Shown here piece by piece: positions 156-31,534 of a DNA stretch of 64,000 nucleotides. Source of the stretch: an uncultured Gammaproteobacteria bacterium (GTDB taxonomy: Bacteria > Cyanobacteriota > Vampirovibrionia > Gastranaerophilales > CAZEDP01). Positions within the stretch are counted from its first letter, which is position 1. Every line of letters begins with the position of its first letter. Under the pieces are notes generated by a model. That model did no database searches, was not told the origin of the DNA, and saw only the letters and a program-made list of their open reading frames with translations. Made by a program: the position numbers and the translations under genes. The DNA is taken from the NCBI GenBank assembly GCA_964643065.1, contig CAZXPD010000004.1, positions 5,098-69,097 on the forward strand, given 5' to 3'.

Positions 156-209
156 CCCCAATAGATAGCGTAAATAAACCCCAATAGCCGATTTAAATAA
201 CCCGCTTAC
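156..209. repeat. Shared 3' junction of toxin/immunity arrays (partner copy 10513..10566)
   Basis: Contains an exact 26-bp match, ccccaatagatagcgtaaataaaccc. Similarity continues through cccgcttac into the stop-codon region of the last immunity gene in both loci. Confidence 0.7.
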
Positions 210-511: not shown

Positions 512-525
512 ATTTGGTATCCTAG

Positions 526-831: not shown

Positions 832-845
832 ATTTGGTATCCTAG

Positions 846-1151
846 TCACCTGAGATTATATTTATTAGCCAATACATCAAGGACACTTTTAGTCCTCTTC
901 CTCACGCCGTCTTCATCAAGAAAGTACGGGCGATCCCTAGCCTCGGGAATAGATTCATAATTTGCAATTCCCATTCTTATCTGCGCAAGAAATTCATATA
1001 TTTCTTTACTATAATTGTGGATAACTTCTGTATAATCTACAAAATAATTCTCAAACTCAATACAAAATTCATCTATATCAATTTTATTACCCAGAAAATC
1101 ATTCGACATATTTATTAAATAATGTATGTGCTTTATTGCTTCATTTGTCAT
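846..1151 (-). CDS. Small cytoplasmic immunity-type protein, copy 1, directly downstream of orphan toxin module 1163..1846
   Basis: ATG 1151 lies 11 nt after the stop of 1163..1846, with GAGGA upstream. DNA 855..1151 matches 10572..10868 with 2 mismatches in 297 bp by manual alignment. Confidence 0.65.
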   Translation of the reverse strand: MTNEAIKHIHYLINMSNDFLGNKIDIDEFCIEFENYFVDYTEVIHNYSKEIYEFLAQIRMGIANYESIPEARDRPYFLDEDGVRKRTKSVLDVLANKYNLR

Positions 1152-1162
1152 ATTTATTTTCC

Positions 1163-1846
1163 TCATTTCTTCAAAATCCATTGCAATTTTATCTTTTTTG
1201 TGTTGATTGCATTAACAATCTCACCTGTATATCTATCAATAATTACAGCCACATTATCAGCATAACGGACATAATTATTTTCAATAGGATCATAATATAA
1301 ATCACCCTTTTTTAAAACTTCAAGAATTTTTTCTGTCGAACTGATTTTACCCTGATTAATACGTTGCACAATTCTTGACACTGCATGACGATTTACCAAA
1401 TAACCGTTATTTTTCAAAGTATAATATGTTCTATAAAGTTTTTCTTTGTAAAGAGACGGATTTGAAGGTTTACCTTTGTATACTTTGGGCATTTGAGCAA
1501 CTCTTTCTTCTATAAATTTTATTATTGCTTTTTCCGAGAGCCTCTCATATACGTTTCGGATTGATGGAGTTCTAGCCAAAGCCCCTTGTCCCATTTTGCC
1601 AATAACAGGTAGAGCTTTCGCAATAGCCTGTTCTTCAATACTTGGAACTCCGGCAAAACTTGCGGAATAAAGTCCGTAGTTTATTACATCGTTCACAGTT
1701 GCTTCTCGTGATTGCTGTGTTCCGGTTTTCCAATCATAAGAAAGCGGTCTAAATCCTTTTAATCCGGCATTATTTGAAGATTGAGCATTCCCGCCGCCAC
1801 CGCCATAATTATTAACGCCCTCCTCAAACTGTCCATTCTCAGCCAT
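1163..1846 (-). CDS. Orphan toxin C-terminal module (possible BECR/DUF4258-like RNase fold)
   Basis: The N-terminal MAENGQFEEGVNNYGGGGGNA matches the Gly hinge of 3382..5082. The DNA handle 1784..1849 equals 4129..4194 with 2 mismatches in 66 bp. The C-terminal pattern NRHAVSRIVQR...ILEVLKKG...VAVIIDRYTGEIVNAI resembles the HAxxRxxxR(8-12 aa)I..vL..G...vVv....g.IiT layout of DUF4258/RelE-like toxins (from memory). Confidence 0.55.
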   Translation of the reverse strand: MAENGQFEEGVNNYGGGGGNAQSSNNAGLKGFRPLSYDWKTGTQQSREATVNDVINYGLYSASFAGVPSIEEQAIAKALPVIGKMGQGALARTPSIRNVYERLSEKAIIKFIEERVAQMPKVYKGKPSNPSLYKEKLYRTYYTLKNNGYLVNRHAVSRIVQRINQGKISSTEKILEVLKKGDLYYDPIENNYVRYADNVAVIIDRYTGEIVNAINTKKIKLQWILKK

Positions 1847-1895: not shown

Positions 1896-2420
1896 TCAAA
1901 AAGCTATTTTAATCGACACAAGGAGCATAACGGTATAAAAAACAGGAATCAAAAATAATGTTATTAAGGATTTTTTGTATTGCATGACATACAATTGATA
2001 CAAGCCAACTAAAAGCATCAAACTTGTAAAATATAGAAACCAACTGAAAAAATAACTTGTAACAATCCAATCATCAGTAAACCCTCTTGCCGTGATATTT
2101 ATAACTCTTCTATATAAGAAATCAGAAAGCAATAACAAGAAAAGCACTATAGACGTTGAGATGGCAGGTATTTTCCAGCTATTAATTATTTGTCTAACTT
2201 TTTCTTTAAACTTTATATTTCCAGTGTATTTATACATTACAAAAATTAAAATATAAAAAAGACCAACTTCAGTAAACACATTATTGAAAAACTTGCTTAA
2301 AATGGTGTTGTTTTGAGTATCGCTAAGAAGGAAGAATACAAAGAATGATAAGTTGTAAAGCAAAATAAACAATATTTGCGGAAAACACAAATTATTCAAT
2401 TTATCACTCATTTTAATCAT
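1896..2420 (-). CDS. Multi-pass membrane protein, candidate immunity partner of module 2420..2779
   Basis: 174 aa with about 5 hydrophobic segments. Its start ATG shares one base with the TAA of the upstream ORF (TAATG coupling). Confidence 0.5.
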   Translation of the reverse strand: MIKMSDKLNNLCFPQILFILLYNLSFFVFFLLSDTQNNTILSKFFNNVFTEVGLFYILIFVMYKYTGNIKFKEKVRQIINSWKIPAISTSIVLFLLLLSDFLYRRVINITARGFTDDWIVTSYFFSWFLYFTSLMLLVGLYQLYVMQYKKSLITLFLIPVFYTVMLLVSIKIAF

Positions 2421-2779
2421 TACCTGTTCTTAGTTATCTTATTCAGCTCCGATTTATCTACTTTTATATCTATAAGGATGTAATAATTCTTTATTTCTTT
2501 GAGTAACTGTAGAAAAAATGCTAAATTGTTTGTTGTTGTAAATATGGGATCAGCTTTGTATCTCTGTATTTTTTCTAATTTAAAATCATACTTGTCATAA
2601 ATAATAGCAGAAAAATTGCCATTTTTGTCAATGTGCGGATATAGAACTGTAGCATCATGAATGCTTCCAAACCAATCCCTATCTTTGTTTTTATCAAATG
2701 TAATTGAATTTCCATAATAATTGCTTAGGAAATGATGTTTTTGAAGCCATTCAGGAACATCATTAGTAAAAGTGTACAT
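2420..2779 (-). CDS. Stand-alone or truncated copy of the DxYDF C-terminal domain (orphan fragment)
   Basis: NSITFDK...GSIHDATVLYPHIDKNGNFSAIIYDKYDF...KNYYILIDI aligns with the last ~115 aa of 14138..15796, 12512..13336 and 3382..5082. It lacks the upstream (S/P)DC segment that the other three have. Confidence 0.5.
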   Translation of the reverse strand: MYTFTNDVPEWLQKHHFLSNYYGNSITFDKNKDRDWFGSIHDATVLYPHIDKNGNFSAIIYDKYDFKLEKIQRYKADPIFTTTNNLAFFLQLLKEIKNYYILIDIKVDKSELNKITKNR

Positions 2780-2788: not shown

Positions 2789-3367
2789 TTAGCCATACAA
2801 GAGATCGAGTCCCAAATACATATCAAGACAAAACAATACTAAAGTTAAAAGTAAAAGTAAAATTGCTTTGCCGAATTTTTTTTTATATAGCTGATAGAAA
2901 CTGGCAAGTAGCATCAATTCAAAAAAATAGAATGTCCAAATACCACTAATGTTTAAAAGATCACTTTGCACTAAAAATATTTCATTTGGAGATTTATTTA
3001 ACATAAAGCGGGATTTTTCGTTATATGCTAAGTAAAAACATAGAACTTCATATAACACAAGCAAGGTAGTCGGTTGCCACCAAACGTTAAAAAATCTCAT
3101 TATTATATTTTTAACGTGTTCTTTATCTGTAAATTTATAAATCAGCCAAATAAAGAGCCCCGAAAGAACCAATCCGACTCCCAATAATTCAATATCCAAA
3201 TCCATTTTATTAAATCTGTTAAACCAAAGATTATCCACTAAAAGACTGTCAACTAAAACTAAAAATTCCGATGAGACATAAGGAATAACAAAAAATATGG
3301 CAAACAACTCAAGATTTAAATATTTTTTGAAGAATTTAAACATTCTCATTTTATAGCATCTAAGCAA
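2789..3367 (-). CDS. Multi-pass membrane protein, candidate immunity partner of 3382..5082
   Basis: 192 aa with 4-5 hydrophobic segments, starting 14 nt after the toxin stop. Paralog of 10910..11488, with near-identical ends and two divergent patches. Confidence 0.55.
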   Translation of the reverse strand: MLRCYKMRMFKFFKKYLNLELFAIFFVIPYVSSEFLVLVDSLLVDNLWFNRFNKMDLDIELLGVGLVLSGLFIWLIYKFTDKEHVKNIIMRFFNVWWQPTTLLVLYEVLCFYLAYNEKSRFMLNKSPNEIFLVQSDLLNISGIWTFYFFELMLLASFYQLYKKKFGKAILLLLLTLVLFCLDMYLGLDLLYG

Positions 3368-3381
3368 TCCTTTGCCAATAT

Positions 3382-5082
3382 TTACTCTAGAATTTCTATA
3401 ATAAATATATAATTTTCTAACAAAGCAAAATTCTGAAGATAATAGGCAATATTATTAATCGCATTAGTTCTAGTTTTGTAAAAATCTTTAAATAGATACT
3501 TTGACACGTCTAATTTATGAAAATCATAAATATCAGAAATCACAACAGAATAATGACCTTTGCTATTCAATTTCACGTTATTTACTGTTACTTTACCAAG
3601 ACTCAGATGTAAATCCTGAGTTTTGTCAAATGAAATTGAATTAGGTGCCGAACCCGTTTTGAGTTTAGCAAGGAATTCCCTAAACTCGACTGACTGTTTT
3701 ACAGCTCGTGAAATTCTACTGTTTGGAGAATATTGCAAAACCTTTAATCTTTTGATATTGCCATTTTTGTCCCAAGTATCTATTGTTTGATCAAGCAATT
3801 TGCAGTCAGGAGTGCTAGACAAATCCTCAAGTTTGTTGATTGAATGTTTCATAAATTCGTATGTCAATGGTCTATAATTATTTTCTATATTGAATTTATA
3901 ATTAACTGCATTAAGCTTAGCTTTGATCTGAGCGTTGGTATTTTCTGTTATATTGGAGTTTGAATTTATCTCCTCATTGTACGGTCGCACATTTGGTTTT
4001 ATATTATCAAAATATGTCTGTTTATAAGAGGGCATACTTGCTATATTTTGATAAGGATCGGCAATATAAGGTTTTTCAGTTGCATATCCCTGTAAAGGGT
4101 TGCTATTGTTTCGACTTTCAGCCTGATTAGCATTCCCGCCGCCACCGCCATAATTATTAACACCCTCCTCAAACTGTTCATTCTCAGCCATATTCTCATA
4201 ACTGTTTATTTTGGCCATATTTTGCTGATACGATTCTTTTTTAGCCGTATATTTAGACCAAAGTTTTTTATGAACAGATTGATTATTATTTGTGGCTATT
4301 TCATTTTCAAGCTTGTCAAGATTAGTCTTTTGTTTAGACAGCGATACTTTAGCTTTATCTATTGCATTTTTCAGATTTCCTTTTGAAGCATCTAAATGAT
4401 GCGAATAGTTTGACACAGCCCCGGATGATTGAACTCCGCCCTCGTACTGTCCATTTTGTCCACCTGATTTTTGAGAAGTAAGTTTTTTAATGGAACTCAT
4501 CAGTTGCATGATTTGCTCTATCTTTTTCAAATCATTATTAACTTCCTCATCGACAGGGTCAGGCGCCGGACTGGGTTCAGGTTCTGGAGTAGGCTCGGGT
4601 TCCGGTTTAGGCTGAGGTTCTCCCTGCCCATCCGGTGGCAGCTTTCCATTATCAGGCGATTTTGGAAACTCGACTATTATCACTTTGCCCTTTAAGACTT
4701 TACCCTCAGGATTATTAGGGTCGGGATTAGGAGGGTTTTGATTTTGGTCGGAGTTAGGATCATTGTCAGGATTAGGATTTCCGTCTTCATCCGGTGACAT
4801 CCCCTGATAATCCCCATTTGATTGTCTGATTGGAGCAGACCTGTAATGTTCTCTGACATCAGTCCCGTCATCTTTTGTATAGGCGCTTACGTGAACAACT
4901 CCACAGCTTTCTTTTAAATCGCTTTCAGATGGTATTCCGATTACACCCAGTTGATAATCAATAGCTTTCTCATTAGCCGCAAATTCAGCCCTCGGCATTT
5001 TCGCGATTTCCTCTCTTGTGAATATTTTATTTGAATTATTTAATTTCGGGTTTGCATACCCCGAATAATTTCTTTTATCCAT
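3382..5082 (-). CDS. Modular polymorphic-toxin-like protein A (conserved N-domain, PE-rich linker, helical region, Gly hinge, DxYDF-family C-terminal domain)
   Basis: Start moved to ATG 5082 (the track uses TTG 5088). The N-terminal ~85 aa are about 85-90 percent identical to 14138..15796, including VHVSAYTKDDGT(D/N)VREHYRSAP. The linker is PQPKPEPEPTPEPEPSPAPDP and the hinge is NNYGGGGGN. No signal peptide was seen. Confidence 0.7.
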   Translation of the reverse strand: MDKRNYSGYANPKLNNSNKIFTREEIAKMPRAEFAANEKAIDYQLGVIGIPSESDLKESCGVVHVSAYTKDDGTDVREHYRSAPIRQSNGDYQGMSPDEDGNPNPDNDPNSDQNQNPPNPDPNNPEGKVLKGKVIIVEFPKSPDNGKLPPDGQGEPQPKPEPEPTPEPEPSPAPDPVDEEVNNDLKKIEQIMQLMSSIKKLTSQKSGGQNGQYEGGVQSSGAVSNYSHHLDASKGNLKNAIDKAKVSLSKQKTNLDKLENEIATNNNQSVHKKLWSKYTAKKESYQQNMAKINSYENMAENEQFEEGVNNYGGGGGNANQAESRNNSNPLQGYATEKPYIADPYQNIASMPSYKQTYFDNIKPNVRPYNEEINSNSNITENTNAQIKAKLNAVNYKFNIENNYRPLTYEFMKHSINKLEDLSSTPDCKLLDQTIDTWDKNGNIKRLKVLQYSPNSRISRAVKQSVEFREFLAKLKTGSAPNSISFDKTQDLHLSLGKVTVNNVKLNSKGHYSVVISDIYDFHKLDVSKYLFKDFYKTRTNAINNIAYYLQNFALLENYIFIIEILE

Positions 5083-5109
5083 GATCAACTCAATTCCTAT
5101 TATTTCTTG

Positions 5110-5829
5110 TTAAACATCCGTTCTGAAAAATTCTTCTATCATTGCTGAATTACAATCATTTCCTTTCTCAAACACAATCCTTCCTTCGGCGTCTCCGCCA
5201 TAGCCGTCCTGTCTTTGCATTTCAAGCAGATATTCAAGGAATTTTTCTCTTGTATATTTATATTTTTCGTCAGGTTTATAATTTTGCCTGTAAAGAGACG
5301 CAGTTCCCCACTCAATTACTTTTATGAACTTCTCGGGAATAAGAGGGACATCCGTTTCATCTGCGAGGTTCTCTTTTTCTTCTGTTTTATCTGCATTGAA
5401 TGCACAGTTTTGTGTCAAAAATTTTATTTGAACGGAATAAGAACTCTCCGGTGTCGGATCAAGTATTAATTTCCCGCCGAAAATCGAATATCTTAAGGGT
5501 TTACCGCTTCCTTCGGAAAGTTTATCGAGATCGCTGTGTTTTACAAAATAAAGCGGCAGAAGAGCTTCTTCAATTCTGACTCCGTCTTTCAAGATACTGC
5601 TTAATTCTACACTTTGCGAAATATCATACTCTTTTTGTTCAGCTGTTGTTTGGAAAGTATATTTTCTTTCCCTGAAAGAAAAAGGAAATCTCAAACATAC
5701 TTCGCCCAGTGTGTCTTTAATGTACTGTTTAATTTCAGGATAGGGCGAATTATCATCGGCAAAATTAACCGGCGGCTCCTCATGAACCAGCACACAAACA
5801 TTTTTCAATATATCGTAAAAATTACTCAT
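5110..5829 (-). CDS. Phage virion structural protein (possible head-tail adaptor)
   Basis: 239 aa, co-oriented and downstream of the capsid module. The assignment rests on position and size only. Confidence 0.35.
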   Translation of the reverse strand: MSNFYDILKNVCVLVHEEPPVNFADDNSPYPEIKQYIKDTLGEVCLRFPFSFRERKYTFQTTAEQKEYDISQSVELSSILKDGVRIEEALLPLYFVKHSDLDKLSEGSGKPLRYSIFGGKLILDPTPESSYSVQIKFLTQNCAFNADKTEEKENLADETDVPLIPEKFIKVIEWGTASLYRQNYKPDEKYKYTREKFLEYLLEMQRQDGYGGDAEGRIVFEKGNDCNSAMIEEFFRTDV

Positions 5830-5962: not shown

Positions 5963-6682
5963 ATGAAAAAAATATTTTTAACTTTATTTATAATTTTTAT
6001 TTACGGCAATTTTGCTTTGTCTCAAGAGCTAAATAATAGTTATTTACAAGCAGGCAATGATTTCTATAACAGCGGAAAGTACGATTCAGCCATAAAATCA
6101 TATAAAAAGGCTTTAAAAAAAGATAATAATAATTTCAAAATATTTTATGACTTAGGGTTGGCATATACTAAAAAAGGGATGATAAAACAAGCTGTTTTAA
6201 GTTACCAAAAAGCTATCGAAATGAACCCTTCTGATGATTTAACATACAATAATCTTGGTTCTTTGTATTTCAGAAAAAAGAATTTTAATAAAGCAATAGA
6301 TAGTTACAAAAAGGCTATTGAGATAAATCCTTCATTAAATATGGCGGTTGAAAATTTGGCTAATACATATTTTGAAATAAAGTCGATTGAATTAGCTTTC
6401 GATAATTTTAAAAAATTACCGGATTCTTATTCAATGGCTTCTTGGTCGCTCAATAAGCTTTCAGCTATTTACATTATCAAAGGTGATTACACATCTGCTA
6501 TCAGCATTTATAAAAAAATGATTGAACGTGAACCTAATTCCGAAATAAATTATTTCAATTTGGCTACTATTTTTGAAATAGTTGGCTTACAAGACTTAGC
6601 CGTTCAAAATTACCAAAAAGCTCTTGAAATCAATCCTCATTATATCCAGGCAAGTGAACAGCTAATAAAAATCAGAAATTGA
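5963..6682 (+). CDS. Secreted TPR-repeat protein
   Basis: N-terminal signal-like segment MKKIFLTLFIIFIYGNFALS, followed by repeated 34-aa units with A..Y.KA(L/I)(E/K).(N/D)P. Confidence 0.85.
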   Translation: MKKIFLTLFIIFIYGNFALSQELNNSYLQAGNDFYNSGKYDSAIKSYKKALKKDNNNFKIFYDLGLAYTKKGMIKQAVLSYQKAIEMNPSDDLTYNNLGSLYFRKKNFNKAIDSYKKAIEINPSLNMAVENLANTYFEIKSIELAFDNFKKLPDSYSMASWSLNKLSAIYIIKGDYTSAISIYKKMIEREPNSEINYFNLATIFEIVGLQDLAVQNYQKALEINPHYIQASEQLIKIRN

Positions 6683-7509: not shown

Positions 7510-8352
7510 CTATGATATAGTGCAAATTAATTTTGCCAGTGCATTGGGCACAACTGTTTTTGCTCCGTATACATAAAGCCCTCTTACGGCTGTGTCGAAA
7601 GAATCCTGAAGCCTGATTGATTCAACTTCAACAACCTGAGAGGCAAAGGTAACGGCATTGTTTGTTCCGGCAAGCACATAATATTTTCCTGCCGTAGCAT
7701 CGAAGTTAGTGCATACCAAAACGTCCAAACCGGCAATCTTTCCGATAGAACCTTCTCTCAAGGTATTATCGCCGGATTGAGTGGCGTGGATGAATTCCGG
7801 AGCCTGTATTAAAAGAGCTTCAATATCAGGATTAATGACAATCCAGGGTTTTTGACCTTTTGTGATAGCGTTAGCCTTTTTAAGAGCTTTTGCCATAGCT
7901 ACAAAATTCGAATAAATATTGTCTTTTGTCAGTTCAATCGGCGTTCCTTCTGAGCCTACGACATTTTCACTCGGAACATCGGCATGTTTTGCGAGTAAAA
8001 AACCGTCTTTAGCGAGGTCAATAGCAACACGGGCTCTTTCAAGATAACCGCTCATGATGTTGATATTTGACTGAGCTTTGGAAACATCGTCAACCTTGAA
8101 TGCAAAGTATTTTTTCTGGTCAATTAACAATGTTTGTAAGGGCGAAGTCAAATCATCATAAGTGATTGAACCGGCATATGTTTTAACGGTAACATTGCCG
8201 AAAGAACGGATGTATACCGTGTCGCCGGAATTTTTTATGTCCCCTTCAAAATCCCTGTTGATGCACTGCATCATAACGCCGGATTTGTCAAGAAGTGTGG
8301 TCAATTTTTTCGACCAAATTTCCGGGACAAAATTTGTTAAGTCATTAGCCAT
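7510..8352 (-). CDS. Major capsid protein (HK97 fold, P22-coat-like small type)
   Basis: 280 aa directly downstream of the scaffold-like ORF. The N-terminal FVPEIWSKK...NRDFEGDIK..GDTV pattern is typical of this capsid family (from memory). Confidence 0.7.
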   Translation of the reverse strand: MANDLTNFVPEIWSKKLTTLLDKSGVMMQCINRDFEGDIKNSGDTVYIRSFGNVTVKTYAGSITYDDLTSPLQTLLIDQKKYFAFKVDDVSKAQSNINIMSGYLERARVAIDLAKDGFLLAKHADVPSENVVGSEGTPIELTKDNIYSNFVAMAKALKKANAITKGQKPWIVINPDIEALLIQAPEFIHATQSGDNTLREGSIGKIAGLDVLVCTNFDATAGKYYVLAGTNNAVTFASQVVEVESIRLQDSFDTAVRGLYVYGAKTVVPNALAKLICTIS

Positions 8353-8497: not shown

Positions 8498-9211
8498 CTA
8501 CTTTATCAATCCTTTTGCCATTTGATCAAAAATCACTTTTTCATATTTTGAAAAAGTTTCTGTATCCATCGCAGCTATTTCTGCTCTGGTAAATGCCCTT
8601 GCGGTATTTGATGAAGGTACACCGCAGTTAACGGAAGACTGAAGTCTTGATTTTGCGTTGTTATTTTCGGCTTTCATCTTCAATGCCGCATTATATCCTG
8701 CTTTATAAATCGATGAAATATACTCAACCGCATCTTCAAAGCCCTGTTCTTTCAGACTTTCATTTTGATTCATATCCATCTGTAAATATGCTTCAATTGC
8801 CTGCTTAACTTCGGGAACAGCATATAACTCCTGATATTTTGTCTGAACGTTTCTCAGGACGGACTGGTTTTCAGTCTGAACGGCAGATAAATTTTTCAGC
8901 TTGTTATCAAGCCATTGATTAGCGTATGCTTCTCCTTTATTTTTCAACAGATAATCGAAATGAGCCTGAAGATTCTGAGGATTCAGCTCTTTTTCGCTCA
9001 TTTCAAAAATCGCATCTTCATATTTTTGCCTTAATTTTCTTTCTTCTTCAAGCTGAGATAATGAATTCTCGGTTTCTTCGGCAATTTTAGGAATTGAACT
9101 TGATTCGCCGTTATTAAAGCTGTTTTGAACTATTGGCTGCGAATCTTCATTTTCATTCTGAACCGGGTTTAGACTTAGATTTTCTGATGAGGTGAAATTT
9201 TCGTTTTCCAT
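8498..9211 (-). CDS. Scaffolding-like protein
   Basis: 237 aa, acidic and helix-prone, immediately upstream of the capsid gene. Confidence 0.5.
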   Translation of the reverse strand: MENENFTSSENLSLNPVQNENEDSQPIVQNSFNNGESSSIPKIAEETENSLSQLEEERKLRQKYEDAIFEMSEKELNPQNLQAHFDYLLKNKGEAYANQWLDNKLKNLSAVQTENQSVLRNVQTKYQELYAVPEVKQAIEAYLQMDMNQNESLKEQGFEDAVEYISSIYKAGYNAALKMKAENNNAKSRLQSSVNCGVPSSNTARAFTRAEIAAMDTETFSKYEKVIFDQMAKGLIK

Positions 9212-10562: not shown

Positions 10563-10868
10563 TTACCTCAAATTATATTTATTAGCCAATATATCAAGGA
10601 CACTTTTAGTCCTCTTCCTCACCCCGTCTTCATCAAGAAAGTACGGGCGATCCCTAGCCTCGGGAATAGATTCATAATTTGCAATTCCCATTCTTATCTG
10701 CGCAAGAAATTCATATATTTCTTTACTATAATTGTGGATAACTTCTGTATAATCTACAAAATAATTCTCAAACTCAATACAAAATTCATCTATATCAATT
10801 TTATTACCCAGAAAATCATTCGACATATTTATTAAATAATGTATGTGCTTTATTGCTTCATTTGTCAT
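10563..10868 (-). CDS. Small cytoplasmic immunity-type protein, orphan copy with no adjacent toxin
   Basis: 101 aa, differing from 846..1151 at only two nucleotide positions. Homology stops exactly at the ATG. Confidence 0.65.
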   Translation of the reverse strand: MTNEAIKHIHYLINMSNDFLGNKIDIDEFCIEFENYFVDYTEVIHNYSKEIYEFLAQIRMGIANYESIPEARDRPYFLDEDGVRKRTKSVLDILANKYNLR

Positions 10869-10909
10869 TTAATGAAATTTCCTATTAAACTCGGCATGTG
10901 AAAAATACT

Positions 10910-11488
10910 TTACCCATATATAAGGTCAAATCCAAAATAAATATCAAGACAAAACAATACTAAAGTTAAAAATAAAAGTAAAATTGCTTTGCCGAATTGT
11001 TTTTTATATAGCTGATAGAAACTGGCAAGTAGGACCAATCCAAAAAAATAGAATGCCCAAAAAAAACCAAAGCCTAAAAGATTTCCTTGTTCTAGAAAAG
11101 CTTCATGCGAAGGTTTGCTTAGCATAAAACGGGATTTTTCGTTATATGCTAAGCAAAAATATAGGACTTCATACGATACAAGCAAGACAATTGGTTGCCA
11201 CCAAACGTTAAAAAATCTCCTTATTATATTTTTAACGTATTCTTTATCTGTAAATTTATAAATCAGCCAAATAAATAAACCGGAAAGAACTAATCCGACT
11301 CCCAGCAATTCAATATCCAAATCCATTCTATTAAATCTGTTAAACCATAGATTATCCTCTAAAAAAATGCCAAGCAAAGCTAAACATTCCAATAAGGCGT
11401 ATGGGATAACAAAAAATAGGGCAAACAACTCAAGATTTAAATATTTTTTGAAGAATTTAAACATTCTCATTTTATAGCATCTAAGCAA
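10910..11488 (-). CDS. Multi-pass membrane protein, orphan paralog of 2789..3367
   Basis: 192 aa. The upstream intergenic cctttgccaatatt is conserved with locus A, but no toxin C-terminus precedes it. Confidence 0.55.
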   Translation of the reverse strand: MLRCYKMRMFKFFKKYLNLELFALFFVIPYALLECLALLGIFLEDNLWFNRFNRMDLDIELLGVGLVLSGLFIWLIYKFTDKEYVKNIIRRFFNVWWQPIVLLVSYEVLYFCLAYNEKSRFMLSKPSHEAFLEQGNLLGFGFFWAFYFFGLVLLASFYQLYKKQFGKAILLLFLTLVLFCLDIYFGFDLIYG

Positions 11489-11622
11489 CCCTTTGCCAAT
11501 ATTATTTATTCCTGAATTATATACTGAATTATATTCAAATGCTTATAAAACCGAAAATGCATTAATAAAGTTGATAATTGTTTGCTATAAAATATGATTA
11601 GTTATTAGATTTTTAATAAATT

Positions 11623-12511: not shown

Positions 12512-13336
12512 TTACTTGTTATTCAATATTCTTGCTACTTGATACTTATCCAATTTGATATAAATAACTATAAAATAATTTTTTAGCAGACCTTTTTCTT
12601 GCAGATTGTACGCAGTTTTAACTAAAATGTTTCCTTCATTTGCAAAATTATAAACATCAATAACAATGGCATTAAAATTTCCGGCTTTGTCCAAGTGAGC
12701 ATTTATAATATCGGCAGAATTAATACTGTTACGTAGATCTTGCTTGGATTTAAATGTTTTTGAGCCATTTATGAACTGTCCATTTATCAATTTGGTTTTA
12801 TTAGTTAGTATAAACTCTTTGATATCTTGAGAATGAGCTATCTTATCAGCAAGAGGGTGTTTTGAAAATAAAATAACACCGGGACAATCAGAATTACCAA
12901 GTTGTGCTTTTATCTTGGACTCCACCCAAGCACGTATTGAGGGATCGTGTATATTATTTATACTGCCATAATAGAGACTATTTAAGGCATTTCCAATAGG
13001 ATAATTTATATGTGTTGAATGCAAAAATAATTTCGAAGATTCGGGGACATTAAAAACATTTCCGTATTTTTCGCCAACGTGAGCGCCAAAATCCATATTA
13101 TTTTTTAGCATTTGGTCGAACCAATTTGGTGAATTGTTCTTACTAGAATTTTGGCTATGGATAGTCTGACTAATAACCTTACTTGAAGATTGAGCAGGTA
13201 GACCACCACCACTTCCCTGATTTCCGTACCCATCCGCAATCCCCTGATAATCCTCATTTTGGAAGAGACTTTCAATATGATTCAGAGCTTGAGAATGTTT
13301 ATTCAGAGCTTGTTTCTTGGCATGTATTTTTTGCAT
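12512..13336 (-). CDS. Orphan C-terminal module of the DxYDF family (displaced 3' part of a 14138-type gene)
   Basis: It starts MQKIHAKKQALNKHSQALNHIESLFQNEDYQGIADGYGNQGSGG, identical to residues ~269-312 of 14138..15796. It then diverges into its own C-terminus with SDCPG ... LDKAGNFNAIVIDVYNF ... KNYFIVIYI. Confidence 0.6.
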   Translation of the reverse strand: MQKIHAKKQALNKHSQALNHIESLFQNEDYQGIADGYGNQGSGGGLPAQSSSKVISQTIHSQNSSKNNSPNWFDQMLKNNMDFGAHVGEKYGNVFNVPESSKLFLHSTHINYPIGNALNSLYYGSINNIHDPSIRAWVESKIKAQLGNSDCPGVILFSKHPLADKIAHSQDIKEFILTNKTKLINGQFINGSKTFKSKQDLRNSINSADIINAHLDKAGNFNAIVIDVYNFANEGNILVKTAYNLQEKGLLKNYFIVIYIKLDKYQVARILNNK

Positions 13337-13518
13337 CAGTTGACCGTATTTAGACTGATTTGTCGTATTTACGGCTTCATCAACAATTTTCTTCAGTTCA
13401 TTCCCTTGTTTTTGCAGAGATGATTTAGATTTGTTAATTGCTCTCTTTAAATTCGTCTTGGATAATTCAATGCTATTAGAATACCTGCTGATTGCTCCTT
13501 AATATTTTGAACTGACAG
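13205..13518. repeat. 314-bp recombination handle (partner 14861..15174)
   Basis: Manual alignment gives 6 mismatches in 314 bp, and the first ~200 bp are identical. Homology extends 182 bp upstream of the orphan ATG, where TCA (Ser214 in the full-length gene, 15155..15157) is TAA (13499..13501). Confidence 0.85.
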
Positions 13519-13558
13519 ATTTATTTCCGTCTATTTCATTTTCAAGTTTATTAATCCA

Positions 13559-14131
13559 CTACATTTTCTTTAATAACATTAAATAGCTTTTGATTTTCCT
13601 AAAAAGAAATAAAAATATAAAAATTGCCAAATAGCTTCCTGTTAATCCTCCAAAAACTAACCTCCAAAATAGATCTGAATCTGAATAAAAGTAAGAGTGT
13701 TCTACAAAAGTTCGTGCAAAATATGAAGATATAATTGCAAAAATATCAACTATTATAGCAAACAATACTATCCTTAGTTGGAGGTTACTATTTTGAAAAA
13801 TAAGTCTAATCCATGTTATAATTTCCACGTTTTTACTCTGTCTTAGAATGATAAAGATTGTTAATGGTAGTAATAAATATTTTATAATTATTAAGAGAGG
13901 CATTAAATATACCGCCAACATCAATATAACAGAAATGCCCTCTATTTGTGCTTTATATAGCCAATCAATATATGAATACCCCATATATGCAAGATATGTT
14001 GCTATGAGTGGAAATATATTTGTTAAAATAATTAAATTTGCAAAAACAAATAAAATAGTCTCCCATTTTAATAGATTTTTAACTATAATTTGCCAGTTCA
14101 ATTTTTCTATAATTTTATCAATCATGAACAA
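13559..14131 (-). CDS. Multi-pass membrane protein, candidate immunity partner of 14138..15796
   Basis: 190 aa with about 5 hydrophobic segments, starting 6 nt after the toxin stop. Confidence 0.55.
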   Translation of the reverse strand: MFMIDKIIEKLNWQIIVKNLLKWETILFVFANLIILTNIFPLIATYLAYMGYSYIDWLYKAQIEGISVILMLAVYLMPLLIIIKYLLLPLTIFIILRQSKNVEIITWIRLIFQNSNLQLRIVLFAIIVDIFAIISSYFARTFVEHSYFYSDSDLFWRLVFGGLTGSYLAIFIFLFLFRKIKSYLMLLKKM

Positions 14132-14137
14132 TCAAGA

Positions 14138-15796
14138 TTATCTAGCTCTATTTATTTTAACAAAAACTATGACAAAATAATTTTCGATATTCTTATTTTC
14201 TTGCCAAGTTTCCATTTGGTTATTAATTTGAGCTTTAATGCTGTATTGATTTTTCATTTTACTAAAATCATATATATCAAAAATTAATGCATTTAAATTT
14301 CCGTTTTTATCAATCCATGCTTTATAAATTGTGGCATTATGCAAAGAATTTGCCAAATCTGTATCACGATAGAAGAAAACTGGTTTGAGAGTTATTGAAC
14401 CTTTTTTAAATAAATCATCTTTGTTTCTATATATTACATCTCTAAAGTCATTGGAATTTTGTATTTTTTTTGCGACATTCGATTCTGAGGTATAAATTAC
14501 TCCCTTACAATCTGATTTGTGTAATATATCACGGATTCGTTCTTGTAGATAAGTTCGTAATTGTTTGTCATTGATTTGTCGAATACTTTGAATCAACTGG
14601 GCATTTGGATTATTTAAAACTTCTCTAAGCCAAGTTAGCGAGTTATGGGCAAATTCTGTTGCAATGGGTACATAAGGTACATTTTTAAGTTTTCTAGCAA
14701 TATCAAATTTCATTCTATCCCAAAATTCTGAAGGTTCATGTAAGTCGGAACTTTTGAGAGTTTTATTTAAATCTGAATAAATATTTTGATTTCTGGCATT
14801 ATTATAATCTGATTTTTTATGAGTCTTACTGGCTGAGTTATTTTCTCCAACATTGGGTACACCACCACTTCCCTGATTTCCGTACCCATCCGCAATCCCC
14901 TGATAATCCTCATTTTGGAAGAGACTTTCAATATGATTCAGAGCTTGAGAATGTTTATTCAGAGCTTGTTTCTTGGCATGTATTTTTTGCATCAGTTGAC
15001 CGTATTTAGACTGATTTGTCGTATTTACGGCTTCATCAACAATTTTCTTCAGTTCATTTCCTTGTTTTTGCAGAGATGCTTTAGATTTGTTAATTGCTCT
15101 CTTTAAATTCGTCTTGGATAATTCAATGTTATTAGAATACCTGTTTATTGCTCCTGAATATTTTGAACTGACAGGCAATGACAGATTTTCTTTATTAGCT
15201 TTACTCGAAGCAATTTCTTTCAGACTGTTCATACTTTGTACTATTTGTTTTGCAAGGTCAGCTATTTCTTTAAGTTCGGAAATATTTTGTTCCTCATCTT
15301 CATTCGACGGTTGAGGATCAGGCTCTGGAGGTGGCTCAGGTTGCGGATCAGGTAAAGGCTCTTCCTGATCGTCCGGCGGTACAGGCAGCATTACCCCGTC
15401 GTTATTTTTATATACGTTTTTTTCAACACTTCCTTTATAAACACGCGGAATTTTTTCTTCACTGTTATTGTCCTGAGTATTATTATCATTATTTTCGTTC
15501 TCATCCCCCTCAACTCCCATCCCCCAACCATTTGACACTCTGTTGGGAGCAGAGCGGTAATGCTCTCTGACATTCGTTCCGTCATCTTTTGTATAAGCGC
15601 TTACGTGAACAACTCCACTGCTTTCCTGCAAATCGCTTTCAGAGGGTATTCCAATTACACCCAGTTGATAATCAATAGCTTTTTCATTAGCCGCAAATTC
15701 AGCCCTTGGCATTTTTGCGACTTCCTCTCTTGTGAATATTTTATTTGAATTATTCAATTTTGGATTTATAAATCCTGCAAAATTTTTTCTATCCAC
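14138..15796 (-). CDS. Modular polymorphic-toxin-like protein B (same architecture as 3382..5082)
   Basis: GTG start. The N-terminal 85 aa are shared with protein A. The linker is PDDQEEPLPDPQPEPPPEPDPQP and the hinge is DGYGNQGSGG. The C-terminus carries SDCKG ... IDKNGNLNALIFDIYDF ... ENYFVIVFV. It is the first minus-strand gene after the portal. Confidence 0.7.
   Translation of the reverse strand: MDRKNFAGFINPKLNNSNKIFTREEVAKMPRAEFAANEKAIDYQLGVIGIPSESDLQESSGVVHVSAYTKDDGTNVREHYRSAPNRVSNGWGMGVEGDENENNDNNTQDNNSEEKIPRVYKGSVEKNVYKNNDGVMLPVPPDDQEEPLPDPQPEPPPEPDPQPSNEDEEQNISELKEIADLAKQIVQSMNSLKEIASSKANKENLSLPVSSKYSGAINRYSNNIELSKTNLKRAINKSKASLQKQGNELKKIVDEAVNTTNQSKYGQLMQKIHAKKQALNKHSQALNHIESLFQNEDYQGIADGYGNQGSGGVPNVGENNSASKTHKKSDYNNARNQNIYSDLNKTLKSSDLHEPSEFWDRMKFDIARKLKNVPYVPIATEFAHNSLTWLREVLNNPNAQLIQSIRQINDKQLRTYLQERIRDILHKSDCKGVIYTSESNVAKKIQNSNDFRDVIYRNKDDLFKKGSITLKPVFFYRDTDLANSLHNATIYKAWIDKNGNLNALIFDIYDFSKMKNQYSIKAQINNQMETWQENKNIENYFVIVFVKINRAR
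14861..15174. repeat. 314-bp handle inside the full-length gene (partner 13205..13518)
   Basis: See 13205..13518. The offset between copies is 1656 bp. Confidence 0.85.
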
Positions 15797-15866: not shown

Positions 15867-16247
15867 ATGACAAACTATTTAGCGGTATTCATAGGCGGTG
15901 GGATAGGCTCTTTATTGAGATATTTAATTTCCTTGTATTTTATAAAACATATAACTAATTCGTTTCCCTATGCCACATTTACTGTAAACTTAATAGGCTG
16001 TCTTTTTATAGGCTTTATAATTTCCCTTTCAATGAACAAACCAGGCTTGTGCGGAACCAGCCTCCTTTTATTCCTTACGGTTGGAATTGCAGGAGGCTTT
16101 ACAACGTTCAGCACATTCAGCTACGAGACTTTCGCTCTTTTAAAGAACGGAGCTTTATCTGTAGCTGTTGTTTATGTTTTTCTGAGTTCATTGTTAGGCT
16201 TATTTGCGGTTTATATGGGTTCATTACTCGGGAAAGCATTCAACTGA
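15867..16247 (+). CDS. crcB: Fluoride ion channel CrcB/Fluc
   Basis: 126 aa with 4 TM segments and the motifs GGGIGSLLRY and GGFTTFSTFSYE. Confidence 0.9.
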   Translation: MTNYLAVFIGGGIGSLLRYLISLYFIKHITNSFPYATFTVNLIGCLFIGFIISLSMNKPGLCGTSLLLFLTVGIAGGFTTFSTFSYETFALLKNGALSVAVVYVFLSSLLGLFAVYMGSLLGKAFN

Positions 16248-17884
16248 CTGGGTTCTTCCTTAATAAAAATATTCGGATCAACAGAACCTAACTGTTCAAA
16301 CGCCCATTTAAGAACTTCAATCCATTTTATTCTCGGGGCAATTTCAGGACTTTGAGCGAATTTATACAATATTTCAAGACTTTCAGCCATTCTTGACTTC
16401 CTTTCGAAAATAGCCGAGCCGTCCCCGATTGTATAATCATAGTTACCCTGTCTGACTGTTTCATCAATCAGGATAAAGTCAAGTTCACCGTTTTGTTTTC
16501 TGATTTTTATTTCTTTTATGTCATAGCTGAAGTTTGCAAGTAATTCAGCAATTTTTTCTATTATGGGAACCTTAACCTTAAAGTTCAAAACATCGACTTC
16601 CTTAGAAATTCTGACATTTTGTCCGAGCATTATACCGCTAGCTTCTGTTGCAGTTCTTTGTTTCGTTCCTGCCGGATTTCCGCTCATGTATTTAGATATA
16701 CCGGTGGCGGATTCTATTTTACTTTCAAAAAACTTCAAGAAATCCCAGCCTACGAGCGCATCTTTAAATTCCAGCGCAATCGGTTCTTTTGGCATCAAGA
16801 CGGGATCATATTCAATAATAGAACCCTCTTTTATTTTAATATTACCTGTCAGAGAGCCTTTAGGAGCAAGGTAAGGCTTATTTATAATCAGCTTCAAGGC
16901 ATCCAACTGGAGATTCATTATGGAAGATGACATTTTATTCAACGGCAACGCAACTAAGAGCGGGCTAATTCCTCTTTTTGTTTCGGGGTCTTCAAGAAAT
17001 GCCGCAAATACAAACGGGTTTAAGATAAACGGATTAGGCTCAAATCTAATTATTTTTTTTCTTCCGGCAAGAGTAACCACATAATTTTTTAACAAATTGC
17101 CGTTTTCGAGCTTAATATCACCCCAATATTCGAGAATTTCTATCTGGTCTCCTTTCGTTGCTTTATTTTCTTCGGAAATCTCTTTTTTCTCTTCCGTTAA
17201 TTCCTTCAATTCCTCATAGTTTTGATAAAGCTTATTTGATTTAATCTCATCAAACGTAGAAAACGAACGATAGATTTTTGGGCAGGTCTCAAAATTCTCT
17301 TTTTTATCAGGATCAAAAACAAAAGCTTCAGGAGATACAATTGTAAGAGAAGGGCCATCGTATACAATTTCATCCTTGAGAGCAAATTCTTTTTCAGCAG
17401 CGTTATTTTCATTTTGTTTAATCCTTCTTACTTTTTTAACTTTAGTTTCCCAATTTATGAAAGCAATAAATTCCCCTTTGTTAATCCAGTTATCCAACCC
17501 TTTTTCAAGTTTTGAAATAAAATTTATTTCTCGAAATACGTCAACCAGGGCGGCTTTTTGTCTTTCAGCTCTGAAGTGGTCTTCTCTTGCTTTTCCCTGA
17601 ACATCGAACATATTGTCGAGAGAAGAATACCAGCTTTTCCACAGATGAGCTTTGTATGTTTCTTTTATTTCATAAATTTCGGGCATTTTTATATCATTCT
17701 GAATGGATGTATTTTTAGAGGGATAAATAACCTTTTCTATAGCCTGATTTGCTTCCAGATTAGGTCTTCTCAGCTCATCCCACAAGTCACGGCTTTTTGC
17801 AATTTTTTCGACTAAAGAATTTTGATTTTCTTCGGAAAGTTGTACGGTTTTATTTTCGTACTCATACTCAAATTTATAAGGCAT
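16211..17884 (-). CDS. Portal-like protein
   Basis: 557 aa counted from ATG 17884, which has AAGGAG 6 nt upstream (the track start is 17917). Same orientation as the terminase and capsid genes. The call rests on size and position. Confidence 0.55.
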   Translation of the reverse strand: MPYKFEYEYENKTVQLSEENQNSLVEKIAKSRDLWDELRRPNLEANQAIEKVIYPSKNTSIQNDIKMPEIYEIKETYKAHLWKSWYSSLDNMFDVQGKAREDHFRAERQKAALVDVFREINFISKLEKGLDNWINKGEFIAFINWETKVKKVRRIKQNENNAAEKEFALKDEIVYDGPSLTIVSPEAFVFDPDKKENFETCPKIYRSFSTFDEIKSNKLYQNYEELKELTEEKKEISEENKATKGDQIEILEYWGDIKLENGNLLKNYVVTLAGRKKIIRFEPNPFILNPFVFAAFLEDPETKRGISPLLVALPLNKMSSSIMNLQLDALKLIINKPYLAPKGSLTGNIKIKEGSIIEYDPVLMPKEPIALEFKDALVGWDFLKFFESKIESATGISKYMSGNPAGTKQRTATEASGIMLGQNVRISKEVDVLNFKVKVPIIEKIAELLANFSYDIKEIKIRKQNGELDFILIDETVRQGNYDYTIGDGSAIFERKSRMAESLEILYKFAQSPEIAPRIKWIEVLKWAFEQLGSVDPNIFIKEEPSQLNAFPSNEPI

Positions 17885-17988
17885 TACAGTCTCCTTATGT
17901 AAACTTTTTATTAACAATTGAAATAAATTAGCAATTTTATATTTTTACGGATTTTAATTATTTAGAATTAAAAATTCGAGGAAAAATT

Positions 17989-18731: not shown

Positions 18732-19055
18732 TTAATTAACGACATCCAAAAGTATTTTATAAGCTCTTATCACGCTTTTGGTTTCTGCATTCTTTAATGT
18801 TTCACAGATTTCGTCAATGAGAGCATTTTTATTTTTTAAATGACCAAATGCAAAAAATTCCTTAATTTCAATTTTCAAAGCTCTTGCTGTTTTTTCCAGT
18901 GTATTAATGGACGGATAGCTTGAACCAACCTCTATTCTGCTCAGGTGCTTATAATCAATGCCGATCATTTCTGCCAACTGAGTTTGTGTTAATTTTCTGT
19001 TTTTTCTGAGTTCTTTAATTCTTAAGCCCAGATTTTTTTTGATACTATTTTCCAT
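18732..19055 (-). CDS. XRE-family HTH regulator
   Basis: LTQTQLAEMIGIDYKHLSRIEVG is a typical HTH_3 sequence. Paralog of 19259..19579. Confidence 0.85.
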   Translation of the reverse strand: MENSIKKNLGLRIKELRKNRKLTQTQLAEMIGIDYKHLSRIEVGSSYPSINTLEKTARALKIEIKEFFAFGHLKNKNALIDEICETLKNAETKSVIRAYKILLDVVN

Positions 19056-19258
19056 ACGCCCTATTTTTATAATTTTTCTCTATACACTATAATTAACCGA
19101 TAAATTTTTTTATAAAACCACAATAAATAAATATTTTTTTTAATAAAGTGATTTCTTATGATGACAACAAACACAGCTGCTTTTACATAGATATAAACCT
19201 TTTCAAAGTTTACTGAACTCAAATCCCTTATTTTACGCAGGTATTACAGGCAAAAGTT

Positions 19259-19579
19259 CTATTTAAGAACGTTTTGCAGTACATTATAAGCCTTAACTAC
19301 ATTTTTGTATTCGGCATTGTGCAATATCTCAGATATTTCCTGTATCAAATCATTTTTAGATCTGGAAAATCCGAAAGAAAACAATTCGCTGGCTTCAACA
19401 TCAAGATAATGAGCTATTTTTTGCAAGGTATTAATGGACGGATAGCTTGAGCCGACCTCTATTCTGCTCAAATGCTTATAATCTATTCCCACCTTCTCGG
19501 CTAAATTTGTTTGAGTTAATTTCTTGGCTTTTCTGAGTTCTTTGATTCTTTGTCCGAGTTTTTTTCCGATATTTTGCAT
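19259..19579 (-). CDS. XRE-family HTH regulator
   Basis: LTQTNLAEKVGIDYKHLSRIEVG. I prefer ATG 19579 over the track TTG start at 19591. Confidence 0.85.
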   Translation of the reverse strand: MQNIGKKLGQRIKELRKAKKLTQTNLAEKVGIDYKHLSRIEVGSSYPSINTLQKIAHYLDVEASELFSFGFSRSKNDLIQEISEILHNAEYKNVVKAYNVLQNVLK

Positions 19580-19799
19580 TTCGCTAATCAATAAATAATT
19601 ACTACATCATAATCATTAACTATTTATTCAAATTTCAGAACTTTATTAAATAAATAATATGACTTTTAAAAGTGACAAATTGTGTAGAAATTTATCCCGC
19701 CAAGCCCGGAATGAATTTTTGGAATTATACTCACTGTTTATGTTTTAAAAAAAAGAACAAACAATTTTTGATTCATAATTGTAAATAGTTTTTAATATT

Positions 19800-20229: not shown

Positions 20230-21510
20230 CTATTCCAACCGCACCGGCCAGTAAAAATCCACAAGATAGCTGGCTGCATCAAACGGATGCCCCATAAACT
20301 TCAACTGCCTGTCCTGTTTTATCTGATAATGCGAAGGCAACGCCAGCCTTGAAGTGCCTTCCTGATATTTAAGGTTTTGCAGATTATATATGAGATTTTT
20401 GCATTTAGGCGAAATATAAACATTAACTTCATTTTTGCTGTTCAATATCTTTGCGTTAAAAGCCGCAATTCTGTTTTTTATTGGCGGATTGAAAGATTTT
20501 ATTTTTATATCCGTATTTTTATAGCCGAGTTGTCCCAGCCTGTTTTTCATAACGGCATAATTTGTAAATTCCGAATTTGACGAACGGTTGTCGCCGGAAG
20601 CATCCCCGTTTATTATAATAGGACCTTTATGCCCTGCATATCTTGAGTGGAATTCATCAACCGCATCTCTTGTTGTTGCATTTTCCATTACGATTTCGTC
20701 GAAATAATATACTTTTTCCTCGGTTTTGTGAGCTAAAATCCAGCACATCGGATCCACGTTAAAATCGCATGTAATATGGAGCGGCAGCTCTTTAATATAG
20801 TTTATATGATTTATATTCTTATCGGAGAACCCTTTTACGGCAAGCCCTTTGGTATAATCGCCAAATTCTCCGAGTACATTAATACGGTAATACTCGCTGT
20901 CATAGGCTTTTTTGAGATTTTCCGCAAAATCTTCCGGGAGATAAATATTTTGAGTTGTAGGAGCTATTATAAGCCGATAATTAGGCTTCGGATTTTCGAC
21001 AAAAGTCCTGTATATCCAGCCCTTTGTGCTTTCGGGGTTAGTATGCCCGAATAACCTGTATTGTGGTATTCCTGACTGTCTTAACCTTCCGAGAAGCATT
21101 TTAAAAGTTGCTTCAGAAACATCAGACATTTCTTCGATTTCTACAAAACCGAGATTTAAAGATTTCAGTCGTGTTTCGTCGTCAAACGACCTGAAAAGTA
21201 TTGATGAACCGTTGCAAAATTCAATCTTGGCTTCACTTTTGATATAGTTATAGTCTACGCCTTCTTTCTTCCCGTCATTTTCGAGATGTTCCAGATACAT
21301 AACAAGAGTGGTATCTCTAACGAGAGGAAAGGTTTGAGCGCCGACAAGACCTCTTATGCCGGGATATTTACGGCACAGCTTTAGTCCCAAAAACGCTCCG
21401 GCAAAAGTTTTTCCCGAGCCGAAACCGCCCTGATAAACGGCAACATCGAGTTTATAGTTATGGGGAATATTTTTTAATTCTTCCTGAGAAGGAAGCAAAT
21501 TAGGTTTCAT
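20230..21510 (-). CDS. terL: Terminase large subunit
   Basis: Walker A QGGFGSGKTF and Walker B-like GFVEIEEMSD. The C-terminal nuclease-type acidic motifs are ITCDFNVDP and IINGDASGD. Confidence 0.85.
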   Translation of the reverse strand: MKPNLLPSQEELKNIPHNYKLDVAVYQGGFGSGKTFAGAFLGLKLCRKYPGIRGLVGAQTFPLVRDTTLVMYLEHLENDGKKEGVDYNYIKSEAKIEFCNGSSILFRSFDDETRLKSLNLGFVEIEEMSDVSEATFKMLLGRLRQSGIPQYRLFGHTNPESTKGWIYRTFVENPKPNYRLIIAPTTQNIYLPEDFAENLKKAYDSEYYRINVLGEFGDYTKGLAVKGFSDKNINHINYIKELPLHITCDFNVDPMCWILAHKTEEKVYYFDEIVMENATTRDAVDEFHSRYAGHKGPIIINGDASGDNRSSNSEFTNYAVMKNRLGQLGYKNTDIKIKSFNPPIKNRIAAFNAKILNSKNEVNVYISPKCKNLIYNLQNLKYQEGTSRLALPSHYQIKQDRQLKFMGHPFDAASYLVDFYWPVRLE

Positions 21511-31481: not shown

Positions 31482-31534
31482 TGCGAAAATGAGTGCTTGA
31501 AAATAATCTTGTCCACATGGGTTGAAACCCACCC
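31482..31534. repeat. 53-bp direct repeat, copy 2
   Basis: Identical to 31197..31249. It lies about 140 nt upstream of the ATPase gene start. Confidence 0.85.

Follow-up and report, generated by a model that had tools for sequence, protein, structure and literature searches.

A probable orphan C-terminal toxin module, joined by a near-identical repeat to a resident toxin gene, in a phage-derived head gene cluster of an uncultured bacterium

Why should a bacterial chromosome carry, just beyond an intact gene for a putative toxin, a second copy of the middle of that gene joined to another, unbroken C-terminal coding sequence? The question is raised by a 64,000-nucleotide stretch of DNA (the window; NCBI GenBank assembly GCA_964643065.1, contig CAZXPD010000004.1, positions 5,098 to 69,097 of the forward strand) from an uncultured bacterium that GenBank names as a Gammaproteobacteria bacterium and GTDB places in the Gastranaerophilales (CAZEDP01). 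At locus A the window encodes toxin A, an immunity-like membrane protein (the product of immA) and, beyond these, a 274-residue open reading frame (ORF) that we call the orphan. Toxin A consists of an N-terminal domain of about 85 residues, a Pro/Asp/Glu-rich linker, a coiled-coil region, a GSGG hinge and a C-terminal domain (CT) of the type marked by the motif DxY[DN]F. The orphan is without the first 208 codons of toxin A, and its CT belongs to the same DxY[DN]F superfamily. We regard 12512..13518 as a likely orphan module for a toxin C-terminus. It would belong to a polymorphic toxin locus within the head-morphogenesis part of a phage-derived, SU10-like gene cluster that the bacterial chromosome carries. 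An earlier reading of the DNA, made without database searches (the sequence-only reading), had already proposed an orphan C-terminal module, and the polymorphic toxin CT with its conserved handle terminating at a glycine hinge agrees with that proposal.

The connection between the two genes is a direct repeat, here called the handle. In a self-alignment of the window at an offset of 1656, 13204..13518 matches 14860..15174 without gaps over 315 bp, with 6 mismatches (BLAST E value 2e-154) at positions 13403, 13423, 13473, 13488, 13490 and 13500, and on the hinge side 199 bp (13204..13402) are 100% identical between the orphan and resident copies. Identity drops abruptly at both ends of the handle, after the GSGG codons on the hinge side and at codon 209 on the distal side. 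Both copies lie on the minus strand and, because the offset equals 3 x 552, in the same reading frame. The sequence-only reading had estimated a near-identity of about 314 bp, with about 6 mismatches and some 200 identical bp, and an abrupt divergence past the GSGG codons; the computed alignment differs from this by a base pair, the match stops exactly at the predicted point, and a self-BLASTN of the window recovers the repeat bounded at the same hinge. The alignment also contains the 182 bp of handle homology that had been described upstream of the orphan's ATG (13336), a codon that is the counterpart of Met269 in toxin A, and the change of TCA to TAA at Ser214, which is read at 13499..13501 on the minus strand. 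The six mismatches comprise one nonsense, three non-synonymous and two synonymous changes, a mixture that fits unconstrained sequence in the orphan handle.

Short-read metagenome assemblies, in which repeats can be mis-threaded (a danger greatest for an 88-bp tract at locus B, described below), could in principle have generated the repeat or its 199 bp of perfect identity as an artefact. However, a second, independent assembly of locus A from the Joint Genome Institute (JGI; sample 3300022663, here L001) is 99.86% identical to the window across 16.2 kb and has the same arrangement and all six handle mismatches; moreover, both copies have unique flanks and stay in frame. Since the structure and the six mismatches are thus reproduced, the repeat is not an artefact of a single assembly, and an origin in assembly is hardly credible.

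How the orphan came to be silent is a separate question, for which the sequence-only reading had offered the single TCA to TAA change. This part of the proposal does not hold. The homology of the orphan to toxin A starts only 5 codons before the TAA, and no in-frame ATG, GTG or TTG was found upstream of it, back to the TAG stop codon of immA (13559..13561). Because an upstream start codon and the 208 N-terminal codons are both absent, the orphan would be silent even without the TAA, which on the polarity of the changes is one of five or six drift substitutions in the non-coding distal handle and not a silencing switch. We infer that the orphan is currently silent: no motif resembling a Shine-Dalgarno (SD) sequence and no promoter-like site were found before it, while the portal, scaffold, capsid and adaptor genes of the same cluster do have an SD-like motif. 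Its CT frame is nevertheless intact. The chance that 229-230 codons stay open at 29% GC is about 8e-9, and the same frame is also open in L001, which argues against long neglect.

An intact frame that begins with ATG would be expected if the 274-residue ORF were translated alone from 13336 into a stand-alone intracellular protein, purifying selection then accounting for the identity of that part of the handle which lies within the ORF. Consistent with this, all six differences fall upstream of the ATG (P about 0.04 under uniformity), and MafB-CT cassettes that bear start codons are regarded as potentially translated (PMC4287609). However, the ATG is an internal methionine codon of the resident gene, set in identical upstream sequence and unaccompanied by an SD-like motif; the 66 bp that precede it are identical as well; and the product would be without the N-terminal domain. 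We consider translation of this kind quite improbable.

The distribution of the handle differences bears more directly on the history of the module. They were polarised with toxin A', the homologue of toxin A in the closest genome (metagenome-assembled genome, MAG, GCA_964511035.1), which is syntenic with the window and about 85% identical to it in nucleotide sequence. At five of the six positions the orphan copy has the derived state; at the remaining one all three sequences disagree. All six differences lie in the distal 116 bp (about 5% divergence). The proximal 199 bp are free of them, although some 9 would be expected there at a uniform rate of about 5%, and toxin A' of the relative departs from the window at 28 of the 199 sites. 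The corresponding probability, (116/315)^6, is about 0.0025, or about 0.02 once the choice of boundary is allowed for. The identical stretch comprises 133 bp inside the orphan ORF and the 66 bp upstream of its ATG; because those 66 bp precede the start codon, and because the stretch shows no synonymous change, purifying selection is insufficient to explain it. The best reading, which this pattern suggests, is a recent homogenisation of the proximal handle by gene conversion or a recombination breakpoint near 13403; conversion directed from the resident gene to the orphan would keep the proximal handle identical. Gene conversion had also been suggested in the sequence-only reading, and recent homogenisation is favoured by the orphan-derived, exclusively distal differences.

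Much of the same evidence could be accommodated if the orphan were a passive relic, that is, a former resident CT that was displaced when a new CT-immunity pair inserted at the hinge and is now decaying, the identity of the handles being a mark of recency. Every polarisable handle change, the nonsense codon included, is on the orphan side; the orphan has no start codon, SD-like motif or upstream promoter-like site to initiate it and no immunity gene on its strand; and decay is seen to occur elsewhere in the window, in a truncated CT of 119 residues and in orphan immunity genes. Against this must be set the improbably open CT frame of 230 codons and the missing proximal changes that a uniform neutral rate would have left. 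Displacement by a donor fragment, moreover, predicts divergence beside the hinge, the opposite of what is observed, and the CT of a sister orphan is in active use in the relative. A passive relic is therefore unlikely, though to be taken seriously.

A module retained in the chromosome, as we prefer to read it, would be of consequence if it could be joined to the resident gene. A crossover anywhere within 13204..13498 (94% of the handle) leaves the TAA out, so that the stop codon, sitting at the distal edge of the handle, is no barrier to an activating event. The computed product of a direct-repeat crossover is an in-frame fusion of toxin A to the orphan CT, of 542 amino acids, with the deletion of 1,656 bp that hold the CT of toxin A (CT-A) and immA. 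By this route CT-A and immA would be lost and a 542-residue toxin with the orphan CT would be gained, a switch of payload that would resemble the activation of Rhs/CdiA orphans. Since comparison of the window with itself revealed no second block of homology downstream of the orphan, the swap would be a deletion rather than a reversible replacement. The stored cassette of the sequence-only reading, which was to replace the resident C-terminus together with its immunity gene, is thus upheld as to the orphan CT module and the exchange of CTs at the hinge, and has to be given up as to replacement, the simple route being the 1,656-bp deletion.

Comparison with the relative shows that related genomes have swapped CT modules at the hinge. 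Locus B of the window repeats the layout of locus A, with toxin B, a paralogue of toxin A, and a second orphan (Table 1). In the relative, toxin B' (P0007, locus L002) is like toxin B upstream, but from the Gly hinge on it is like the window's orphan 1163..1846 (87% amino acid identity), and it is then followed by two Colicin_immun genes; what the window keeps as an orphan thus serves the relative as the resident CT of toxin B', joined at the hinge. The handle of the second orphan, about 75-80 bp in common with toxin B, has 3 differences, and the relative's version of it is far more diverged and has an 18-nt insertion. Two toxin-less immunity genes of the window, in 10563..11503, appear to be remnants of CT deletion. 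At locus A the relative has another orphan CT directly after toxin A' and its immunity gene and, further on, what is left of the 3' end of a CT-A-like module, accompanied by an immA-like gene. The occurrence of orphan modules at both loci in both genomes implies fast-turning-over arrays. No handles or orphans were found in the loci of Gastranaerophilales with short genes, so that the feature is specific to the lineage with long linkers, and scans for the handle in metagenome and viral contigs gave no match. Separately, the 5' end of toxin A' in the relative is apparently interrupted (L004 9763..10010): N-terminal homology breaks off at 9849 and is picked up again at 10007, and the ORF as called begins with an internal methionine (MPRAEF...).

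Variation between samples supplies two observations that likewise favour homogenisation. At position 13302 the orphan of L001 has G, the state of the relative, whereas the orphan of the window and both resident copies have A (coincidence probability about 0.05). For locus B, two other assemblies (L085 and L086) are available. Over 11.5 kb these depart from the window at 30 sites, every one of them inside an 88-bp segment (963..1050) of an ImmD-like gene (846..1181); at 30 of the 30 sites the window agrees with its own paralogue at 10565..10868, 9.7 kb away. This tract is either a clean gene-conversion tract or the result of assembler mis-threading. Of the 27 differences that separate the window from L001, 22 are clustered at 18944..19082, in the 5' part of an XRE-type regulator gene (18732..19055). 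L001 agrees with the paralogous regulator copy (19259..19591) at 13 of the 22, and the cluster may be a second conversion or a mosaic polymorphism.

Several observations weigh against the interpretation of 12512..13518 as a module that can be put to use. The fused, recombinant form of the 274-residue orphan was not found, both assemblies that cover locus A being unswapped, and protein searches with the orphan alone and with the CT alignment returned only the orphan itself. After the orphan there is no immunity-like gene on the same strand; the next gene encodes a protein with 6 transmembrane (TM) segments on the opposite strand. With only six substitutions, the mosaic might owe something to purifying selection on an ORF that is translated, or its distal part might have come from a foreign source, and the differences between samples, at 13302 and in 963..1050, might be due to mis-threading of the assembler through repeats. 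Finally, the CT is without a relative in Pfam, PHROG or PDB, and toxicity, immunity and capsid loading are predicted properties. As for immunity, the 6-TM protein of 281 residues is the sole adjacent candidate and may be the cognate partner of the orphan. A weak homologue of it sits downstream of a toxin gene in locus L066, and its similarity to the other immunity-like proteins is marginal only.

Table 1. Features of the two toxin loci and of the surrounding head gene cluster (window coordinates; aa, amino acids)
Feature	Position	Strand	Remarks
Toxin A, 552 aa, GTG start	14138..15796	-	from the ORF listing; exact protein present in JGI data
Handle, resident copy	14860..15174	-	codons 209-312 of toxin A
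GSGG hinge, codons 309-312	14861..14872	-	conserved/variable boundary; orphan counterpart 13205..13216
immA, immunity-like membrane protein, 188-190 aa, 4 predicted TM	13559..14131	-	starts 6 nt past toxin A
Handle, orphan copy	13204..13518	-	13204..13402 identical to resident; 13403..13518 holds all 6 differences
TAA replacing Ser214 TCA	13499..13501	-	resident TCA at 15155..15157; TAA derived in orphan copy
Orphan ORF, 274 aa	12512..13336	-	44 handle residues, hinge and 230-aa CT (DVYNF); frame intact
6-TM protein, 281 aa	11623..12468	+	convergent with orphan; promoter-like site 11571..11598
Orphan TM immunity gene, 192 aa, 3-4 TM	10910..11503 (3-4-TM protein 10910..11488)	-	carries last 15 nt of toxin-B-type CT; 87% identical to 2789..3382
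ImmD-like (Colicin_immun) soluble immunity gene	10563..10868	-	no adjacent toxin; 98.7% identical to 848..1151
Toxin B, 566-568 aa, paralogue of toxin A	3382..5088	-	same N-terminal domain; after SU10_adaptor gene (5110..5829)
3-4-TM protein	2789..3367	-	after toxin B
CT fragment, 119 aa, truncated, no handle	2420..2779	-	DxY[DN]F superfamily
5-TM protein	1896..2420	-	between CT fragment and second orphan
Second orphan, 227 aa	1163..1846 (with handle to 1853)	-	handle 1779..1853 matches 4125..4198; GGGGG hinge
Three tandem Colicin_immun-like genes	206..1181	-	after second orphan; include ImmD-like 846..1181
Terminase large subunit	20230..21510	-	head cluster
Two XRE-type regulators	18732..19055 and 19259..19591	-	between terminase and portal
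Portal protein (SU10_portal)	16211..17917	-	toxin A comes after portal
crcB	15867..16247	+	between portal and toxin A; 3' end overlaps portal 3' end by 37 bp
Scaffold-like protein	8498..9211	-	head cluster
Major capsid protein	7510..8352	-	head cluster
TPR protein	5963..6682	+	cellular-type gene inside head cluster
SU10 adaptor (SU10_adaptor)	5110..5829	-	immediately before toxin B

The wider family to which these genes belong has the layout expected of polymorphic toxins. The genes of toxins A and B are alike over little more than an initial stretch of about 268 bp (87% nucleotide identity), and the encoded N-terminal domain was found at 76 loci in a set of species-representative genomes, nearly all of them MAGs of Candidatus Gastranaerophilales/Melainabacteria, where it heads proteins of 230-350 residues with various C-termini. 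A shared N-terminus followed by differing CTs points to a conserved/variable organisation with its boundary at the Gly hinge. No Pfam or PHROG match was obtained for toxins A and B, their N-terminal domain, the orphan or the TM proteins, nor any match of the N-terminal domain among GenBank phages. The CTs of toxin A, the orphan, toxin B and the 119-residue fragment constitute one superfamily with the conserved DxY[DN]F motif, which a profile search of 1.84 billion representatives extended to 789 clusters in which the domain is always C-terminal. The N-termini joined to it fall into four groups: the domain of toxins A and B, a short VHVxAYxKxDGTxVxxHxR motif, a GHWVTINGNH motif, and sub-threshold Phage_Mu_F domains (E values 2e-5 to 7e-5). 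A family member of 656 residues (P0008; L087, from Logan SRR21360449, 1334..6655) lies beside a Prim-Pol/DUF3987 primase gene and an HTH_17 excisionase-like gene, in another type of mobile element and with no head genes in view.

What follows the toxin gene depends on its CT. Among the family loci, 27 of 29 genes with a DxY[DN]F CT are followed, within 0-67 nt, by an ORF of 145-240 residues with 3-5 TM segments, an arrangement seen in 0 of the 14 genes whose CT is of another type. After the other CT type, that of the orphan 1163..1846 and of P0007, come soluble Colicin_immun (PF09204) genes. This co-variation of CT type with the downstream gene is the signature of toxin-immunity modules, and the strict pairing of the DxY[DN]F CT with membrane proteins suggests that its target lies in the cell envelope. 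The replacement of D by N in the orphan's DVYNF was considered as a mark of inactivation and rejected, full-length members of the family also carrying N at that position.

An activity like that of colicin M was likewise considered for the CT and has been reduced to a minor lead. The top Foldseek matches of a first AlphaFold2 model, with a predicted local distance difference test (pLDDT) score of 70, were ColM and the C-terminal domain of a type VI secretion system (T6SS) effector (E values 0.014-0.03), and hhalign gave a weak collinear match of the CT to ColM over 69 columns (E value 0.013) that includes the DxYDF motif. This motif stands at the position of D226/Y228/D229 in ColM, and membrane-associated immunity proteins are a further likeness. 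However, the HR of the colicin M signature DxYDx5HR is not conserved here and there is no Pfam Colicin_M match; a model with a pLDDT of 89 had neither ColM nor any significant PDB neighbour, and profile searches of Pfam and PDB were blank.

The genomic setting of the toxin genes is that of a phage head cluster. On the minus strand the order at locus A is portal, toxin A, immA and orphan, followed by the scaffold-like protein, capsid, adaptor and toxin B. The right half of the window encodes cellular enzymes, by which the cluster is placed in a bacterial chromosome. Genes of cellular type, crcB and one for a TPR protein, lie inside the cluster on the opposite strand, and at a comparable place a third genome has an H+-pyrophosphatase gene (L088 4162..6627). 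Residues 16-46 of toxin A resemble the C-terminal 31 residues (202-232) of the scaffold-like protein (39% identity, pairwise E value 3e-4), the two having in common the motif FTRxEIAxM...F...EKxI, and several matches of the N-terminal domain in viral contigs fall on scaffold C-termini. Because of this resemblance, the N-terminal motif would probably target the toxin into the capsid, as has been proposed for MuF toxins. Rfam and tRNA scans of the window found nothing, and no fluoride riboswitch precedes crcB. Elsewhere in the window there is a perfect 53-bp direct repeat (31197..31249 and 31482..31534, 285 bp apart) upstream of an ORF of 716 residues (31661..33811).

The placing of the toxin genes behind the portal and adaptor genes of the head module also raises the prospect that these proteins are virion-packaged effectors which a phage injects into a new host, that their membrane partners serve superinfection exclusion or self-protection, and that the orphan is a spare effector module. 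The motif in common with the scaffold-like protein and the fusion of the CT to MuF-like domains would agree with such a role, and injected phage effectors are a known theme (PMC5512222). On the other hand, the partners of the other CT type are immunity genes of the colicin kind (PF09204); arrays of orphan CT and immunity genes, with spare immunity genes among them, are typical of competition toxins (PMC4287609); and for most of the homologues in Gastranaerophilales no phage structural genes could be detected within 10 kb. We think effectors of this kind rather improbable. Similarly doubtful is a bolder extension of our preferred reading as an orphan toxin module, in which the head cluster would be a long-resident, domesticated particle that loads toxins through a mimic of the scaffold's coat-binding segment and delivers them to competitors, the orphan cassettes switching its payload. 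Against a nucleotide identity of about 85% between the two genomes, the head structural proteins of the window and of the relative reach 96-97% identity; this conservation, together with the cellular genes that interrupt the cluster, gives a hint that the element has long been resident or has been domesticated.

Toxin cassettes of this orphan kind, equipped with recombination handles, belong to the textbook picture of contact-dependent inhibition (CDI), Rhs and MafB systems, and we know of no description of them for the toxins of phage head modules. The architecture of locus A is thus a known one, and it is the toxin family and the phage-head setting that are new. One close parallel is with the orphans of Rhs and CDI loci (Poole 2011; Koskiniemi 2014, PMC3967940), which are likewise downstream fragments without signals for initiation or delivery that keep the sequence preceding the CT; recombination fuses and activates them at the cost of the resident CT and immunity gene, and the same would be expected here. 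For orphan rhs and cdiA-CT modules, recombination with the main gene has been demonstrated experimentally (PMC3967940); at the toxin A locus it is predicted. The Rhs/YD and FHA repeats and the PxxxxDPxGL and VENN motifs of those systems were not found in the toxin locus (regular-expression search, with Pfam for the repeats), and a marker search of the toxins was negative for LXG. Rhs and CDI toxins are, moreover, delivered through type V secretion systems or T6SS, in contrast to the phage head module, Gly-rich hinge boundary and short protein (552 residues) seen here.

Two other systems share different aspects of these loci. The maf genomic islands of Neisseria carry silent MafB-CT cassettes, known from comparative evidence (PMC4287609); as here, the toxins are short and globular, the cassettes lack starts and retain a 5' conserved region, and a cassette of one strain is the resident CT of another, which is the same type of evidence as that from locus B. 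MafB differs in its unrelated N-terminal domain, its MafA partner (there is none here), its lineage and its genomic context. MuF polymorphic toxins of temperate phages (Jamet 2017, PMC5576092) resemble toxin A in the position of the gene directly after the portal, the variable CT and the small downstream ORF, and there are other proteins in which the CT domain described here is joined to sub-threshold Phage_Mu_F domains. However, a Pfam search gave no MuF domain (PF04233/PF06152) for toxins A and B, a second copy, toxin B, follows the adaptor gene, and the immunity proteins are multi-TM. The MuF survey makes no mention of orphan cassettes, the word 'orphan' occurring 0 times in it (PMC5576092).

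From the perspective of this family, the orphan module would extend the logic of cassette switching to toxins that have so far gone unannotated, with an N-terminal domain in 76 loci and a CT in 789 clusters without a solved homologue, and would carry it into an uncultured lineage and to a payload that is likely delivered by a capsid. The same loci provide a compact natural case of gene conversion among toxin and immunity paralogues, apparently polymorphic between samples of one population.

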